Origin: a virus | Length of the DNA stretch: 11,376 nucleotides | Virus genome (UHGV): UHGV-0146776 | Direction: 5' to 3' (one strand) | Part shown: piece after piece, positions 50 to 10,336 of the stretch | How positions within the stretch are numbered: position 1 is the first letter of the stretch | Layout of the letters: each line of letters begins with the position of its first letter | Position numbers and translations under genes: made by a program | Notes under the pieces: generated by a model | The model's database searches: none | Seen by the model: the letters and a program-made list of their open reading frames with translations, nothing else | Told to the model about the DNA's origin: nothing

Positions 50-754
50 TTAACTGACAGTTACGGTGCAGGAAGTGGAGGTCACCTTATTAATCGGGCT
101 TGCTGAATCAGAAACCTCACAGGTATACGCACCGGCATCTCCGGATGTCACGGAGGCCTTGTTGAAAGTTGCCGATGTCTGCCCGGAAACTGGAGAGCTG
201 CCTTTCTTCCAGACATATGAATAAGGAGGCACACCACCTGATGCCTCAACAGACATATTCAGCGTTTCACTGGCAGAAACCTGTAGTGTACTTTTCAAAT
301 CAGAGAGGAGTTTCAAAGGTTCAGTGGTCAGAGAGGGCTTTCCTTTCAGGCGCAGGGAAAATGTGGCGGCAACAACACCGTTGGTTCCCACAGACCAGGT
401 ATGCTGGCGAACTTCTGCCATAAAGGTAAATCCATTTCCTGACGGGAAAATAACTTTGAAACCGTATGTGGTGTCGTTGTCATAAGCACTACGCAACGCG
501 TTCTGGGCAGCGTTGAGATAAAAGTTTCCTGACATGGAAATCTCTGAAGCAGCCCCAAGACCGTTGATATTCTCCTGCTCGGTAGAACACAGCGTAGTGA
601 CATCAATATCCTGTTTCTGCCCGGCGGTAAACTGAACCTCTTTAATCGTACAGCTCAGTTCAAGAAAACTGGCAGAACTCAGCATTTCTGCCGTTACCGG
701 TGCAGACGAGATCATGACTTTGGTCTGCTGAGAACGTTCAAAATTAGAGGACAT
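50..754 (-). CDS. Phage major tail protein with C-terminal Ig-like (Big_2-type) domain
   Basis: Track ORF 50..805, trimmed to the internal ATG at 754..752, which is preceded by AGGAG with about 6 nt spacing. The longer N-terminal extension would run through the intrinsic terminator hairpin. C-terminal ~90 aa (GGVPPYSYVW...AGAYTCEV...) looks like an Ig-like domain as on lambda gpV-type tail tube proteins. Position is downstream of the head-tail joining genes. Confidence 0.8.
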   Translation of the reverse strand: MSSNFERSQQTKVMISSAPVTAEMLSSASFLELSCTIKEVQFTAGQKQDIDVTTLCSTEQENINGLGAASEISMSGNFYLNAAQNALRSAYDNDTTYGFKVIFPSGNGFTFMAEVRQHTWSVGTNGVVAATFSLRLKGKPSLTTEPLKLLSDLKSTLQVSASETLNMSVEASGGVPPYSYVWKKGSSPVSGQTSATFNKASVTSGDAGAYTCEVSDSASPINKVTSTSCTVTVS

Positions 755-4374: not shown

Positions 4375-5593
4375 TGGCGTTATCCTTCTGCTTACCGGCT
4401 TTACTGCCATCGGAGGGTTTCGTGGTCATGTTCATCGGTGTGAGATAGACATCACCACCGGGACGCGGATTCATATCTTCCAGGTCGCGGCAGTCATTGG
4501 GAGAGTAAATTCCCCAGTTAATCCCGGTGGCGTAGGCTTCAAAACGGGACTTCATATCCCCGCGCAGTAACGCCCCGGCGTTAAATTTGGCGTAATAAAC
4601 GCCCTGCTTACTTTTTCGTACCAGTCCGGTGTTGATCCGCTGTTCGATGCGGGTCAGATACGGCACCAGTGAATAGTTGATAAATCCGAGCCCCAGTTCT
4701 TCGATATTGTTGAAGGTGGCGCGATCGGTGTTCTGCACCATGTGCAACGGTACCCGGAACAGACGACAGATTTCTTCAAGCTGAAACTTGCGGGTTTCCA
4801 GGAACTGGCTGTCCTCGGCGTTCAGCGCCATCGACTTCCAGTCCAGCCCCATCTCAAGGATCATCGGGCGGTGAGCATTGCCAAGCCCGGTGTGACGCTC
4901 CTCAAAATCTTTCTTCAGGCGCTCATAAGCCTGATCTGACAGCGTCTGCTCTGTACGCAACACACCCGACGTCACCGCGCCATTGCTGAACAGTCTGGCC
5001 CCGTGCTCTTCGGTCGCTGCCGCCAGCGATATTGCCTCGCGGGCATAGGCGATGGGATTCAGCCCCACCAGTCCGTCCAGCGTCAGCGTGCGCACATGCC
5101 AGATATCCTCCTGGCTCAGTACATCCGTGGAGCCATCCGGGAATGTGACCTGATAGACCGGCTCCCAGCTACTGTTAAGCTTCGGTACCACACAGCCGGG
5201 ATCGACGGGCAGCAGTTCAGCCACTTCGCCAAATGCTTTCACTTTGTAGGCGTAAAAGTTTCCCCGCAGGCACAGACAGGTGACCACCAGCTCCCAGAAC
5301 TCCTGCGGCGTCATATAGCCATTGGGATGCGTGGAGATCAGCTTATGCAGACGTTCGCCAGCGGCTCTCTGCTTCAGACTGCCGTTCAGGTGATACAGGT
5401 TGCAGGGCAACATCCCGACCGACTCCGCCAGCACCCTGACACAGGAAAAAACCGCCGTCAGTCGCATGGCCCGCTGGCTGCTGATCTGCTTTCCGGTATA
5501 GGTGTCGTAGGACAACCCGATAGCATCCGCCAGCTCTGCTGGCGTGGTCACCGGTGCGTCACTTTTTCGTTGAAATAATCCCGAAAAGAACAC
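4352..5593 (-). CDS. Portal protein, HK97 family
   Basis: 413 aa with GTG start at 5593, preceded by GGAGGT at 5-6 nt and overlapping the stop of the upstream small ORF (TAGTG). Size and position between terminase large subunit and protease fit a portal. Confidence 0.85.
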   Translation of the reverse strand: MFFSGLFQRKSDAPVTTPAELADAIGLSYDTYTGKQISSQRAMRLTAVFSCVRVLAESVGMLPCNLYHLNGSLKQRAAGERLHKLISTHPNGYMTPQEFWELVVTCLCLRGNFYAYKVKAFGEVAELLPVDPGCVVPKLNSSWEPVYQVTFPDGSTDVLSQEDIWHVRTLTLDGLVGLNPIAYAREAISLAAATEEHGARLFSNGAVTSGVLRTEQTLSDQAYERLKKDFEERHTGLGNAHRPMILEMGLDWKSMALNAEDSQFLETRKFQLEEICRLFRVPLHMVQNTDRATFNNIEELGLGFINYSLVPYLTRIEQRINTGLVRKSKQGVYYAKFNAGALLRGDMKSRFEAYATGINWGIYSPNDCRDLEDMNPRPGGDVYLTPMNMTTKPSDGSKAGKQKDNANADETTS

Positions 5594-5775
5594 TATTTAC
5601 CTCCGCCGACAGACGACTGTGTACGGTCGAGATATCGCGCCACCAGCCACGACCAGAACAGACACAACGCCCCGGCAACAACAAACCCCGCCGGGGGATA
5701 AATCAGCCAGGCACCATACGCCAGCAAAAGCGCCCCCAGCACGCCCACCAGAGGCGCGAGAATCAGCATGATCAT
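5593..5775 (-). CDS. Small hydrophobic protein (60 aa, two predicted transmembrane helices), function unknown
   Basis: ATG at 5775 preceded by GAGGT. The stop overlaps the portal GTG start and the portal SD lies inside its last codons (VGGGK = GUC GGC GGA GGU AAA). Sequence [49 protein letters not shown] is almost entirely hydrophobic. Confidence 0.5.
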
Positions 5776-5786
5776 AATTACCTCAG

Positions 5787-7520
5787 TTAAAGCGAGCGGA
5801 TCCCATAGGACTCAATGTGGTCAGACAGCGTGTCTTCTTTCTCGTACAGCATGGCTCTGCCAACCGCCATAATCAGCGCAACTGCACCATCGATTTTGTT
5901 TTCCGCCTGCTCTTTGACGGGCTTCACCACATCATCGTTACCCGGAATGGTTTTGCCGACCACGTTGCCGATACACCAGGTCATGATGGGATTGCCATCA
6001 TGATGAAAGCGCCCCGATTCAATTGCCGCTTCCAGCTCTTTCATCGGGTCGGACATGTTGGTGTAGTTCTGAATGATAGTGATGGGGTTCAGGTCTTCAT
6101 CAGCAAGGTCATGTGACAACCCGGTCGCCCCGAAGGGGTCGATGGGTGACTCACTGACCGGGCTGATTTTGTTCGCCGCTTTGGCCTCCTCGAGGATGTA
6201 GCGATAATCCACCTCCGCACCATCGGTAACGGTCAGAACGCCCATTTCCACCCATTTCTGAAAGCGTTCGGCTGTCCGTCGATCTTCATTTTTCTCGACG
6301 CTGTACACCGTGTCATACGGTACCCAGAAACGCGGGGCCACACTGTAGTAATGCGTTTTACCGTCAATCTCGCGGGTATAAAGTCGCGCCATGCTGTTCA
6401 TATCCAGCTTACGCGCCAGGTCAAAGGCCAGAATGCACGGCTGCCCCTCGAACTGCTCAAGGGTCAGTGATTTATCCTCGCAGCTCTGCCAGCTCACCAG
6501 GTTGAAATACGCCGAACGCGCCGACACCCAGATATTGAGGTGTTTTGTTTTAAAGACGTTTGCCAGACGGGCGTTATTTTTCGCACGCTGCTGCTGACTT
6601 AACAAAAATTCGCGATAAACCGACACGCCAATATTCGGGTTAGCTTTTTCCAGCACCTGCGGGTCGGTCCAGTCATCGCCTTCGTCAACGGTATAGATGA
6701 TCCCGAACAGTTCATCGTTGGGTACCGACCCGTTGAGCATCTCGATAACTTCCCGTCGCTTGTCGTAGCACGGCCCCTCAATGTTGTACCCGGCAGTAGT
6801 AATGGCCCACATCAGTGGCTGACGTCGCGCCCCCATCCCGGTAAGCATCGTGGTGTAAAGCGCATCGGTGGCGTGCTCGTGATATTCATCCACCACCGCA
6901 CAGTGGGGTGATGAACCATCACCGGGGTTACCGATCAGCGGTTCAAACCGCGCGCCATCCTCCGGACGATTCATGTTTGAGGCGTTAACCTCAATCCCGA
7001 ACGCTTCCGTCAGCATGGGTGTGCGTTTACACATCAGTCTTGCCGGACGAAAGACTTCCCATGCCTGTTTCTCCGTCGTGGCACCGGAATACACTTCCGC
7101 GCCGAACTCGTTATCACAGGCAAAACAATACAGGGCGACACCGGCAGAGATTGCTGATTTGCCGTTCTTACGGGGGATTTCGGTATACACCTCCCGGAAG
7201 CGGCGCAGCCGGGTGCCTTTATTGACCCAGCCAAACGCACAGCAGATCACAAAGAGCTGCCACGGCTCCAGCGTGATGGGCATCCTCTTGAATGCCCACT
7301 CACCCTTGGTGTGCGGCAACAGCTGAATAAATTTGGCGGCCCGTTCAGCCAGGTCCTTGTCGAAGCGGTAACGAAACGACTTACTTTTTTCCGCCATCAG
7401 GTCATCAAGATGGCGCTGGCAGGCCTGAATCACAAACTGGCAGGCCACAATCTTTCCGCGCACGACATCCCGGGCATACTGATTGGCAGCATTTACGTTG
7501 GGGTAAGATTTCCGGCTCAT
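5787..7520 (-). CDS. Terminase large subunit (ATPase/nuclease)
   Basis: 577 aa. Walker A-like [14 protein letters not shown] near the N-terminal third. ATGA overlap with the upstream terminase small subunit gene at 7517-7520. Position is directly upstream of portal. Confidence 0.9.
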
Positions 7521-8011
7521 GATTCGATAATTTTCAGAAACGGGTTAGTGGCTTTCTTCTTCCCCGCCAGGCCAATCAGACGCTGACGGCTGCTGGGGTC
7601 GAGTCCGAGCATTGCCCCCGTACTGCTCATCTCGGACTCCTGTTCTTTTTTGGCGGTCAGCTCCGGATTTTTGACCATGCCGCCCATTGCGCCGGTGATG
7701 GTGTTGCCCTGTATGGCAATATTTTTCACGGCACGTCGCCAGAACTCATAGGCCACGCACCACCGCTCAAGCACCGCGAGGTCAGTCACGCACAGCAGGC
7801 CCTGACCGCAGAGTTCTTTGGTTGTCAGTTGCCACATGATCGTGGCGAGAGGGAGATCTTCTTCAGCGAACCACTCCGGTGGCTCAACACCTTTGATGGG
7901 CGTAAAAACGGGTTCATCTTTGTTCAGGGCTCGCTTGCCGGGGTTTCCGGCCAGCGCCTTGCGCGCCGTTGGCTTGGGGCGACGCCCGGAACGCCCCGCC
8001 GTTCCAGCCAT
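7517..8011 (-). CDS. Terminase small subunit (P27-family-like)
   Basis: Track ORF starts with GTG at 8020; the ATG at 8011..8009 is preceded by AGGAG at about 8 nt. Basic N-terminus ([13 protein letters not shown]). Sits between HNH endonuclease and terminase large subunit as in HK97-type packaging modules. Confidence 0.7.
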
Positions 8012-8020
8012 ATGCGGCAC

Positions 8021-8136
8021 TCCTGGTTAAATTTCATTTTTCGCGGGTATAAAAAAACGATGGGGCGGGCAGTCCGGAAGACGTCAGGCTGCAGGGATTT
8101 GACCCGCCCCTCCCCTCAGACAGTTGAGAATTATTA
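8021..8136. other. Putative cos / packaging-site region containing a GC-rich 8-bp inverted repeat
   Basis: Non-coding gap between HNH stop and terminase small start. GGGGCGGG (8062-8069) and CCCGCCCC (8103-8110) flank a 33-bp spacer containing GACGTC and CTGCAG palindromes; the adjacent run of seven A (8051-8057) is a U-run for minus-strand RNA. Position matches where HK97-like phages carry cos. Cleavage site not determinable from sequence. Confidence 0.3.
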
Positions 8137-8487
8137 TCACTTTAACCGTTCACGGGCCGTCTTCGCCTTATGACACGGCCAGCACAGACTCTGCAGATTA
8201 CTGTCAGCATCAGTGCCGCCATGCGCTTTAGGGATGATGTGGTCAACAGTTTTCGCCTCACGCACCACACCAGCACGCAGACATAACTGACACAGGCCTT
8301 TGTCACGCTTCAGAACACGCACGCGGATAACATCCCACTTCGAACCATAACCGCGCTGATGACGGGATTGTCCAGGTTTGTATTGCTTCCAGCCTTCGCT
8401 TTTGTGGCTTTCGCAGTAGCCTGACGGGTCCGTGGTTGTAGAGCGGCAGCCGCGAACACGGCAGGCTTTTGGGATTCTAGGGGGCAT
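8137..8487 (-). CDS. HNH endonuclease (terminase-associated)
   Basis: 116 aa with Cys-rich N-terminus (CRVRGC...CESH) and HNH core VDHIIPKAHGGTDADSNLQSLCWPCHKAK. Located immediately upstream of terminase small subunit. Confidence 0.85.
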   Translation of the reverse strand: MPPRIPKACRVRGCRSTTTDPSGYCESHKSEGWKQYKPGQSRHQRGYGSKWDVIRVRVLKRDKGLCQLCLRAGVVREAKTVDHIIPKAHGGTDADSNLQSLCWPCHKAKTARERLK

Positions 8488-8537
8488 ATAAAAAATTTAT
8501 AATAAGTAAAATAATAAAGAAAAATGCTCAAAGGCAA

Positions 8538-9092
8538 TTATCTTGACTCAAATACAAATCTAGAAGAGATGAGCTTATCAAGCATTTTCATAAGTAAATC
8601 CTTACTCTCACCACCATTTATATATTTATTAAAGTTAGACTCGAACTCATGCCAAACTTTTTCTAACTCAGTATTATCAAATAAGTGCTCTGTCGCAAAC
8701 CATGAAGACTGGCAACAATCGAAAATACTCAAAAGTTCATCAAATCTTTTAACATTCTCTTCTCCCAACTCAATTTGCTGACTAATAAGATCTACATCTT
8801 TAAATAGCCATTTCGCAATAACTTGCTCTCGTTCATCATTGAGTTGCTCGGGGTCAATATTGACAGGCATAAATAATAGAGCTGTCTTTAATTTCTTTAA
8901 TGCATTCCTAAAATCTATTTTTACTTTTGTTTTCTCTTGTTCCCGCCACGTAAACAATGCCTTGAACGCCAAAAACAAAGTAACAATAGTAGCTCCAGCA
9001 CTCACCCAAGATGCAATCATTGCCCAACAAGCCCACTCAGCAGCAGCACGGTTTGCTACAAGTGTCTCATATGCAATATAATTTTCGTTCAT
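8538..9092 (-). CDS. Hypothetical membrane-anchored protein (184 aa) in AT-rich island; candidate moron / exclusion or defence protein
   Basis: Long ORF in DNA that is about one-third G+C on sampled lines, where chance ORFs are rare. ATG at 9092 preceded by GAGGT. One N-terminal hydrophobic segment (about residues 16-47), then KALFTWREQEKTKVK, then an acidic helix-prone ~135-aa domain. No family-level motif recognised. Confidence 0.75.
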   Translation of the reverse strand: MNENYIAYETLVANRAAAEWACWAMIASWVSAGATIVTLFLAFKALFTWREQEKTKVKIDFRNALKKLKTALLFMPVNIDPEQLNDEREQVIAKWLFKDVDLISQQIELGEENVKRFDELLSIFDCCQSSWFATEHLFDNTELEKVWHEFESNFNKYINGGESKDLLMKMLDKLISSRFVFESR

Positions 9093-9098
9093 TTTTAC

Positions 9099-9116
9099 CT
9101 CACTGTTAATAGTGAG
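9099..9116 (-). promoter_or_regulatory. Dyad symmetry element overlapping the ribosome-binding site of the island gene
   Basis: CTCACT-gttaat-AGTGAG: 6-bp perfect arms around a 6-bp spacer with a central TTAA. On the mRNA the 3' arm overlaps the GAGGU SD of the 8538..9092 gene. Confidence 0.3.
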
Positions 9117-9169
9117 AGTATTGTAACTAAAAGCATAATAACTAGAACAGTCAAATAATAATATTTCAC

Positions 9170-9448
9170 CTAATGAATATTATTATTCAAATGCAGATTG
9201 AACTTTTGCTCTCCTAACCTACGAAGATCAGACTTATCACGGTTACATAGCCCCAGTGCTGATAGCAGACTTACATTCAAACTAAGACTATCCCCATAAG
9301 TCAGAGGATTGGGTATAACTGGCTGTGGAGTTTCAGCGAGCAGGTTCGTCGGTAACGGCATCGTTGGAACCTGCACGTATACTGTCCGCGTACTTCCGCA
9401 ACCGGTCAGCAGCGACATCAGGCACAGGGCGTGAAGCACAATCATCAT
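9170..9448 (-). CDS. Outer-membrane spanin (Rz1-like lipoprotein, o-spanin), overlapping the i-spanin gene
   Basis: Alternative frame inside the Rz gene and extending past it. Internal Met start gives MMIVLHALCLMSLLTGCGS, a signal peptide with lipobox LLTGC, followed by a Pro-rich segment (VQVPTMPLPTNLLAETPQPVIPNPL). Start codon choice (9448 versus 9514) and the C-terminal extent are uncertain. Confidence 0.6.
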   Translation of the reverse strand: MMIVLHALCLMSLLTGCGSTRTVYVQVPTMPLPTNLLAETPQPVIPNPLTYGDSLSLNVSLLSALGLCNRDKSDLRRLGEQKFNLHLNNNIH

Positions 9449-9725
9449 CCGCAACAGCCACTTTGATATCTTCCTGGGTTCTCTGTGACTCCAGTGCGAT
9501 CTGCTGTTTTGCATGTTGATTCGCCTCCTGAATGATGTTCGTTATTGCCATAGTACGCAGAACATTCGCGGTGATAGCCTCAGTAGAATCAGCTCGCTGT
9601 TCCGCAGCATCAGCACGCTTCTGCTCCTCCAGAAACTTTCCATGATAGTGATTCGCTGACCAGACAAGACCACCAGCGACACAAGCAATAAACGTTAAAA
9701 TGAGCGCCCAATAACTCATCTTCAT
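9333..9725 (-). CDS. Inner-membrane spanin (Rz-like, i-spanin)
   Basis: 130 aa with N-terminal TM helix (SYWALILTFIACVAGGLVW), then a charged coiled-coil-like periplasmic domain. ATGA overlap with the endolysin stop. Contains the lipoprotein ORF in another frame. Confidence 0.75.
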   Translation of the reverse strand: MKMSYWALILTFIACVAGGLVWSANHYHGKFLEEQKRADAAEQRADSTEAITANVLRTMAITNIIQEANQHAKQQIALESQRTQEDIKVAVADDDCASRPVPDVAADRLRKYADSIRAGSNDAVTDEPAR

Positions 9726-10336
9726 ACCAGCAGCGCCGCCCGCGCCTTGTTGTATCGGACCTTACGATCCTCAATACCGTTCAAACCGCCGTTAATGATG
9801 CGCGTAACACGGTTAATATCGGCACCGTAGATCATGCAACCTTTAGAGGTGTAGAACCATGCAGCTGAGCGCGCCGCCTGTAGTTCCTGTTCCAGTTGTT
9901 CAGGTGAAGTCACCAGATCTAACTTCAGCGCCGCGCCACAGATGCGATAATTATGGAGGCCAGTGATTTGAATTAATCCTCTACCACGATATTTCCAGCC
10001 ATCACCTGGTGCTTTGTTACCCAGTCGGTTGCTATACACCAGATTGGCAATAGCATCCTGACGAGCTGCATGTCCGGATGTTCTGCCAAGGGCATCAGCC
10101 TGCTGCTGTGTGATCCTCTTTCCGAACGTCGCCACAAGCGCAGATGGTGTGTAGTTAAGATTTTCAACTACGGCGCTAAACCCCATCGACTCATGGCCTG
10201 CCTGAGCGATAAACATTGCCTGATCCGCTGGTGCTGTAATGCCGAATTCCTTCATCGCCGCATCAATGTGCGGAAACCAGCGCGCAGCCAGCCCGGCGCT
10301 AATACCAGCCGCCTTTTGAAATAATTGTTGGTTCAT
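9722..10336 (-). CDS. Endolysin, glycoside hydrolase family 19 (chitinase-like lysozyme)
   Basis: 204 aa. Motif KYRGRGLIQITGLHNY is characteristic of GH19 catalytic domains. ATG at 10336 overlaps the upstream stop (TAATG) with GAGG SD. Flanked by membrane proteins upstream and spanins downstream. Confidence 0.85.
   Translation of the reverse strand: MNQQLFQKAAGISAGLAARWFPHIDAAMKEFGITAPADQAMFIAQAGHESMGFSAVVENLNYTPSALVATFGKRITQQQADALGRTSGHAARQDAIANLVYSNRLGNKAPGDGWKYRGRGLIQITGLHNYRICGAALKLDLVTSPEQLEQELQAARSAAWFYTSKGCMIYGADINRVTRIINGGLNGIEDRKVRYNKARAALLV

Follow-up and report, generated by a model that had tools for sequence, protein, structure and literature searches.

Among described phage systems, three come closest to the gene considered here. 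The gp15 moron of HK97 mediates superinfection exclusion (Cumby et al. 2012, as cited in PMC11364771), while SieA of P22 is a prophage-expressed inner-membrane protein that is likewise encoded by a late-operon moron and carries a conserved motif on its cytoplasmic side (PMC10883804). The Tai defence genes are also morons, located mostly upstream of the packaging module, and they are expressed in lysogens and reduced under Q-driven late transcription (PMC11364771). Here we examine ORF184, an open reading frame (ORF) of 184 amino acids (aa) within an AT-rich segment (the island) of the viral genome UHGV-0146776, of which a stretch of 11,376 nucleotides (nt) was analysed (the window, whose positions serve as coordinates). 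In all probability, the island is an acquired accessory cassette, or moron, inserted between the spanin and HNH/terminase genes of an SfV/HK97-like Escherichia coli prophage, and ORF184 is a real gene under purifying selection. A more tentative proposal, which we put forward as possible though short of probable, is that this moron encodes a membrane-tethered, lysogen-protecting anti-phage factor with an expression logic of its own.

The resemblance to each of the three systems is partial. ORF184 and HK97 gp15, the latter annotated with its own terminator, are each inserted as a single gene into the late operon of an HK97-like phage and stand out by their base composition, and the ORF184 product is predicted to be a small inner-membrane protein, as is gp15. 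However, gp15 has only 62 aa and lies between tail genes, whereas the ORF184 product is modelled with a large cytoplasmic four-helix bundle. P22 SieA differs in its three transmembrane (TM) segments, its FxRYPxEAxxFNK motif and its location between genes 16 and 9, as ORF184 has a single predicted TM segment. The phi80 Tai gene (TaiEcA/orf63) occupies the same lysis-to-packaging niche as ORF184, and the phi80 Tai region is preceded by the same 42-nt element as are most ORF184 homologs. This is a shared niche, rather than membership in one system: TaiEcA is a soluble protein of 204 aa whose gene is divergently transcribed, whereas ORF184 is predicted to be membrane-anchored and is co-directional with the late operon.

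A sequence-only reading of this locus had described the ~680 bp between the Rz1 and HNH genes as an AT-rich island holding a single horizontally acquired accessory gene, and most of that description was sustained. The G+C content is 0.331 across 8488-9170 and is equal across 8488-9243, compared with 0.565 and 0.515 in the flanks (7500-8487 and 9244-10300, respectively), and the proposed identities of both flanking genes agree with their Pfam matches (Table 1). As for the proposed limits, the start at 8488 stands while the end at 9170 does not, since homology to SfV ends at 8488 and restarts only at 9243, which also implies that the foreign DNA supplies the last ~24 codons of Rz1. In a comparison with vB_EcoM-689R6, the breakpoints fall at 8511 and 9227. 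The compositional difference is also seen at the three codon positions, with G+C values of 0.44/0.32/0.32 in ORF184 versus 0.58/0.53/0.55 in HNH, and the G+C content of the homologous gene is below that of its flanks in every locus compared. The Rz1-HNH junction is short in relatives: only 26 bp separate the Rz1 stop from the HNH start in SfV, and empty sites occur among E. coli prophages. The flanking genes were present in 1,324 of 5,426 complete E. coli genomes and the island in just 28, meaning that the gene is missing from about 98% of related prophages. The island copies are always single-copy and chromosomal, with 99.1-100% identity in 27 of the 28, and no plasmid copy of the island gene was found. 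Carriers include enterotoxigenic E. coli (ETEC) H10407, avian pathogenic E. coli (APEC) and other animal-associated strains.

The junction itself is a polymorphic hotspot. In a spread sample of related prophages it was empty or else occupied by a GrlR-family gene (106 aa), a 145-aa ORF, a 168-aa ORF or a pair of opposite-strand ORFs (111 and 189 aa), and at least five alternative cargos occur there in E. coli prophages besides the empty sites. The GrlR-like protein is the only alternative cargo with a family match, a sub-threshold one to Pfam GrlR (24.4 bits versus a cut-off of 26.8, E=3e-5), and none of these cargos matched known defence proteins in PADLOC. ORF184 has no homology to the 168-aa cargo of vB_EcoM-689R6. 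Two features of a moron in the sense of Juhala and Hendrix, extra DNA between otherwise adjacent genes and an atypical base composition, are both found at this locus, while the scan of 8488-8537 returned no factor-independent terminator of its own. The insertion, its rarity, the hotspot, the base composition and the moron layout of the homologs described below bear out the claim of a horizontally acquired single-protein module, which can be regarded as well supported.

All of the window genes lie on the minus strand, in the order of two holin-like ORFs, a GH19 endolysin, Rz, Rz1/LysC, ORF184 and HNH, followed by a P27-type small terminase, the large terminase, portal, protease and capsid genes. 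In most homologous loci, the gene is found directly downstream of Rz/Rz1, and this position, together with the Rz1 C-terminus supplied by the island, would be in keeping with a lysis accessory protein, such as an antiholin-like factor or a modulator of spanin or holin. In ETEC H10407, however, where the gene has the tag ETEC_RS31260, a 99.9% identical island adjoins a holin of the lambda family and an endolysin of the GH24 type, in contrast to the GH19 cassette of the window, which indicates that the island is not bound to one lysis system, and a constant association with one type of holin or endolysin is lacking. Presence in 28 of about 1,324 related E. coli prophages is likewise far from presence in all relatives, distant family members are found between tail genes or after Rha, homologs have their own terminators, and the predicted periplasmic part comprises at most 20 residues and is missing in many family members. 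A lysis accessory role is therefore highly improbable. The H10407 prophage also has a KAP-family NTPase gene (L062 5325-6656) on the opposite strand, just upstream of its lysis cassette/holin, which is likely a further accessory insert.

Close homologs of ORF184 likewise lie between the spanin and small-terminase genes, and do so in backbones whose packaging genes are unrelated, namely DUF1441(Nu1-like)/GpA, Terminase_2/Terminase_3 with Mu-F, and P27/HNH. More distant members are located after spanins, after a Rha-like gene, beside a soluble GT2 glycosyltransferase, or, among tail genes, behind the major tail gene and ahead of a further one with a PHROG tape-measure match. The soluble GT2-like glycosyltransferase (~485 aa, PHROG 1579) recurs between lysis and HNH/packaging genes; it is followed by a ~196-aa ORF in L191 and L052, and its G+C content in L191 (0.56) is typical of the phage backbone. 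We considered and dismissed the idea that it forms a functional unit with the ORF184-like gene in L047, L052, L054 and L191, as the two genes diverge independently (e.g. 78% versus 36% identity), differ in G+C content (0.56 versus 0.40) and are separated by a terminator.

The reading from sequence had further claimed a minus-strand ORF with an ATG, a GAGGT Shine-Dalgarno (SD) sequence and a length beyond chance, and all of these hold. The longest open frame of the island spans 213 codons, whereas 2,000 dinucleotide shuffles yielded a mean of 68.5 +/- 16.7 and a maximum of 163, with none reaching 213. Among ORF184 homologs, the proportion of synonymous differences (pS) is 0.7-0.85 and thus saturated, while its nonsynonymous counterpart (pN) is about 0.2, and the ratio of the corresponding rates (dN/dS) is 0.09-0.12 where measurable. 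ORF184 is a full-length member of PHROG 6169 (E=1.3e-74, residues 15-183 on profile positions 2-165 of 165), a family that is itself without functional annotation, such that the match supplies a family name only. A word-indexed search identified 13 relatives in Citrobacter, Enterobacter, Kluyvera, Klebsiella, Kosakonia, Serratia and Salmonella, while a full profile search yielded 122 cluster representatives of 130-200 aa with conserved motifs, from prophages of Enterobacterales; a scan of genome contigs contributed just one further locus. ORF184 had no significant match in Pfam, NCBIfam or PADLOC, and the initial view of a protein that cannot be placed in a characterised family is supported. 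A match to SLATT, a two-TM effector domain, scored 16.4 bits versus a cut-off of 41; only one of 36 family members showed any such match, which was set aside as chance, and the Gifsy defence protein GiPD474 is unrelated in size and location. No literature was found on the ORF184 protein accession.

It could still be argued that ORF184 is a spurious or decaying frame in AT-rich junk DNA, given that its family lacks annotation and that one copy is split into two ORFs in a single phage record (118970_sal3). We consider this practically untenable: in addition to the shuffling result and the 122 representatives with conserved motifs, the protein is modelled by AlphaFold2 with high confidence (see below), and the dN/dS of about 0.1 at saturated synonymous divergence already refutes it. 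The record in question, the 77-kb sequence of Salmonella phage 118970_sal3 (L001, NC_031940), contains two copies of the gene (6539-7092 and record 76310-76861), of which the one at the Rz-HNH junction is split and the other is intact. An attR is annotated within its structural region, which suggests that the record joins two prophages.

ORF184 was expected to encode a single N-terminal hydrophobic helix, a basic stretch and then an acidic helical domain, and hydropathy, charge and AlphaFold2 agree on this arrangement. A model built from a 36-sequence alignment had a predicted local distance difference test score (pLDDT) of 90.7 and a predicted template modelling score (pTM) of 0.71, with helices at residues 3-73 (a long helix containing the hydrophobic segment), 81-97, 101-133, 142-158 and 164-176. 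Very likely, the ORF184 product resides in the inner membrane and crosses it with a single TM helix. The N-tail has a net charge of -2 and residues 49-75 following the TM segment have a net charge of +5, which, by the positive-inside rule, predicts an N-out/C-in topology with a periplasmic acidic N-tail and a cytoplasmic bundle; the bundle itself (residues 76-184) is entirely helical and acidic (pI 4.5). The best-conserved stretch is formed by the TM and juxtamembrane helix (0.50-0.55), with W49, Q52, K56 and F61 nearly invariant across the family, and the least conserved is the initial half of the bundle (0.27), while the N-tail is absent altogether from many members. The modelled cytoplasmic fold is a generic four-helix bundle: Foldseek against PDB gave a best E-value of 0.64, BFVD returned only a fragment of ORF184's own gene, and a profile search of PDB sequences with ORF184 returned nothing.

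A sister family (L063 5001-5534; proteins P0013, P0098, P0107, P0115, P0126, P0128, P0133 and P0134) has an unrelated C-terminal domain without a Pfam match. Its common ground with ORF184 consists of about 12-30 nt of the 5' untranslated region (UTR), including the hairpin described below, and the first ~30 codons, encoding the N-tail and the start of the TM segment, which points to a mosaic breakpoint inside the gene. One of these, P0013, occupies exactly the same slot between lysis genes and small terminase in a Serratia prophage whose relatives bear ORF184 homologs. Neither the family members P0018 and P0078 nor the alternative C-domain proteins P0013 and P0098 matched PADLOC-DB 2.0.

Prophage genes such as bor, lom and those of the DicB type benefit the host, and ORF184 might similarly be a lysogenic-conversion factor without any link to defence, altering envelope stress, division, transport or colonisation. 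Its moron architecture, the hotspot shared with a GrlR-family regulator cargo and the animal-associated carriers would all fit this explanation. However, the bulk of the protein is predicted to be cytoplasmic with almost no periplasmic exposure, making Bor- or Lom-like surface roles unlikely, and it is not similar to any regulator or enzyme. Overall, we judge this explanation distinctly unlikely.

Upstream of the ATG, the loci remain homologous for about 45-50 nt, a region in which the SD sequence is predicted to pair with an upstream anti-SD arm (Table 1). Among 12 homologous loci, 90% of cells in this hairpin are paired, compared with 44-54% when the 3' partner is slid, and compensatory changes occur in four of its seven pairs; none of 500 shuffles attained the covariation score. 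Accordingly, the hallmark of fold-back inhibition, a conserved stem sequestering the ribosome-binding site, is present. Abutting the 5' arm is a -10-like box, which is (near-)invariant as TAnAAT at the -10 position in the 12 loci and ends 0-2 nt before the stem; at the equivalent place, the homolog in L007 has GTGACA-17-TAAAAT, with 10 of 12 promoter matches. Terminators directly follow the stop codon in the homologs of L004, L007 and L010 and, as judged by eye, in L037-L048 and L191. The homologs display the arrangement that is classic for a moron, in which the gene lies between a promoter-like box and a terminator.

Seven nt after TACAAT, the predicted transcription start lies at about 9113, and since the 5' arm of the hairpin spans -6 to +2 of the putative promoter, transcripts from it would lack the anti-SD arm and hence be translatable, while late-operon read-through transcripts would include the arm and be poorly translated. 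Fold-back inhibition of this type was reportedly described for IS10/Tn10 by Davis, Simons and Kleckner in 1985. As in that case, the stem at ORF184 would hide the ribosome-binding site, with a 5' arm upstream of the gene's own start, and only external read-through would be silenced. It differs in that the start of ORF184 is only predicted from a -10-like box, and in that the gene belongs to a phage moron rather than encoding a transposase. Insulated expression of the cassette from its own promoter is thus a possibility to which we give slightly less than half of our confidence. Rfam had no match within window positions 8300-9400.

Upstream of most ORF184 homologs is the 42-nt element GGCATTACAGC-AGGCATTCAcTGAGTGCCT-GTGATAATGC, and a pattern scan of viral contigs located it at 120 or more loci (L071-L190). 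Among the matches listed, nearly all share the full element, at least 105 distinct sequences follow it, and the ORFs downstream are diverse, with HNH genes and lipoprotein-like proteins among them as well as many unknowns. The element is on the late strand in the lysis-to-packaging interval, often beginning at the stop codon of the preceding gene, and it also occurs in phi80, mEp390 and ZF40 (Table 1). It is a near-perfect palindrome with an RNA fold of -25.7 kcal/mol (z=-6.3); three variants are perfect palindromes with different outer arms, while covariation is modest overall. Its 3' arm reads TGTGATAAT, an extended -10 motif. In the window, an AT-only palindrome that folds weakly (-10.7 kcal/mol, z=-1.8) is, by its letters, a diverged copy of the element core (ATTCAyTnrGTG), in the place where homologs hold AGGCATTCAcTGAGTGCCT. 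SD sequestration was not supported as a general trait of element-led cargo (mean minimum free energy -7.6 versus -7.8, p=0.58; SD-paired 0.56 versus 0.49, p=0.02). A literature search with the element sequence found no description of it; the element might serve as a promoter under regulation, as a signal in RNA processing or stability, or as a handle for recombination.

Table 1. Positions of ORF184, its surrounding features and related loci.
Feature	Record	Position	Strand	Remarks
AT-rich foreign segment (island)	Window	8488..9243	.	Delimited by G+C drop and SfV homology breakpoints; stands in place of the short Rz1-HNH junction
ORF184	Window	8538-9092	-	184 aa; ATG 9092-9090, GAGGT 9101-9097, stop TAA 8540-8538
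ORF184 protein parts	Window	residues 1-19; ~20-48; 49-75; 76-184		Acidic N-tail; predicted TM; basic juxtamembrane helix; modelled four-helix bundle
Hairpin pairing the SD (GAGGT 9101-9097) with upstream anti-SD arm	Window	9096..9120	-	Predicted; -9.1 kcal/mol, z=-3.96, 1/200 shuffles equal
-10-like TACAAT	Window	9120..9125	-	Putative own promoter abutting hairpin 5' arm; no recognisable -35 in window copy
TATTATGCTTTT	Window	9129..9140	-	Counterpart of GATAATGCTTTT, which closes the 42-nt palindromic element in homologs
AT-only palindrome AATAATAATATT-cattaggtga-AATATTATTATT	Window	9154..9187	-	Perfect 12-bp arms; straddles Rz1 stop codon
Last ~24 codons and stop of Rz1/LysC	Window	9170..9242	-	Island-encoded; SfV breakpoint 9243
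Rz1/LysC	Window	9170-9514	-	Pfam LysC E=5e-16, residues 35-103 of 114
AT-rich spacer, ORF184 stop to HNH start	Window	8488..8537	-	50 nt; without G+C-rich terminator hairpin
HNH	Window	8137-8487	-	Pfam HNH E=2e-16
42-nt element	phi80 (JX871397)	44305-44337		Just before taiEcA/atiEcA region
42-nt element	mEp390 (NC_019721)	36409-36440		After lysis genes
42-nt element	ZF40 (NC_019522)	21747-21780		After lysis genes
Alternative cargo at Rz1-HNH junction, E. coli prophage	L064	939-1944
Alternative cargo at Rz1-HNH junction, E. coli prophage	L065	881-1201
Alternative cargo at Rz1-HNH junction, E. coli prophage	L066	916-1353
Alternative cargo at Rz1-HNH junction, E. coli prophage	L067	846-1352
GT2-like glycosyltransferase locus	L191	1799-3828
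GT2-like glycosyltransferase locus	L047	1561-3120
GT2-like glycosyltransferase locus	L052	5819-7908
GT2-like glycosyltransferase locus	L054	5633-7090
GT2-like glycosyltransferase locus	mEp390	36724-38181

Elsewhere in the window, a strongly hydrophobic 60-aa ORF (5593-5775, minus strand) lies between the large terminase and portal genes, and the label given to its equivalent is 'membrane protein' in the 118970_sal3 record and 'hypothetical' in that of H10407.

With regard to function, we propose that ORF184 may act for the lysogen as a membrane-tethered anti-phage factor, either through superinfection exclusion, by blocking a step at the inner membrane, or through abortive infection, with a variable cytoplasmic bundle that would sense a phage product and a conserved membrane-proximal part through which the protein would act. 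Exclusion or abortive infection had been suggested at the outset, and either remains plausible. The proposal is favoured by the moron layout, the hotspot, the combination of a membrane anchor with a variable surface and an exchangeable C-domain, and the Tai precedent. An anti-phage role is a tentative possibility that stops just short of an even one.

Several results weigh against this proposal. Profile comparison with hhalign gave probabilities of 0.85% for SieA, 0.09% for SieB, 0.14% for gp15 and 0.1% for TaiEcA, indicating no homology, and the sole match of ORF184 in PADLOC-DB 2.0 was to CARF_TM (E=0.021) over the TM region, a lead that we dropped as a weak hidden Markov model match only. 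The promoter scan of the window found no full promoter and no -35 at ORF184, and the terminator scan found no intrinsic terminator in 8488-8537, so the window copy may be transcribed mainly or only within the late operon. Most homologs also have a second candidate -10, the TGTGATAAT of the 42-nt element, further upstream; transcripts from it would hold the whole hairpin, which would therefore serve as a constitutive translational damper rather than as a read-through filter. Lastly, H-NS silencing in the lysogen is likely at 33% G+C.

The missing -35 and terminator also fit a late-expressed phage function, in which ORF184 would be translated from the Q-dependent late transcript and aid the lytic cycle, for instance as a counter to some host defence, as a modulator of the membrane ahead of lysis or as a means of stopping progeny from re-infecting doomed cells, with the hairpin keeping its dose low. 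ORF184 is read in the direction of the late operon, with Rz1 ending 77 nt ahead of it and HNH starting 50 nt behind it, and a hairpin of -9 kcal/mol would reduce, rather than abolish, translation. However, the terminators and promoter-like box of the homologs would be needless for a purely late gene. The gene is also missing from about 98% of related prophages and is found in non-lysis slots. We consider a late function unlikely, though not negligible, and return to the lysogen-protecting moron as the favoured reading.

A bolder version of that reading, which is speculative and probably does not hold in full, is that ORF184 founds a new single-protein family of membrane-tethered anti-phage factors, with a TM/juxtamembrane effector and an exchangeable cytoplasmic sensor (the four-helix bundle in ORF184, another, unrelated domain in the sister family of this slot), within a wider, undescribed cassette system defined by the 42-nt element. 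In such a system, the element would punctuate the lysis-to-packaging interval of enterobacterial temperate phages and head more than 100 different accessory genes, serving as a promoter/operator under regulation, as a signal for RNase III-type processing or as a handle for recombination.

Prophage morons are a main reservoir of undiscovered phage-exclusion and defence genes, and the cassette described here is compact (about 750 bp with one gene) and has carriers among pathogenic lineages of E. coli, such as ETEC H10407 and APEC. As ORF184 is unrelated to every catalogued system, a positive plaque assay would reveal a family of defence or exclusion proteins not known so far. The 42-nt element, if not already described, may provide a sequence tag for accessory cargo in temperate phage genomes. 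If true, the proposed role of the hairpin and -10 box would constitute a simple way for a moron to be silent in read-through late transcripts, thereby sparing its own phage.

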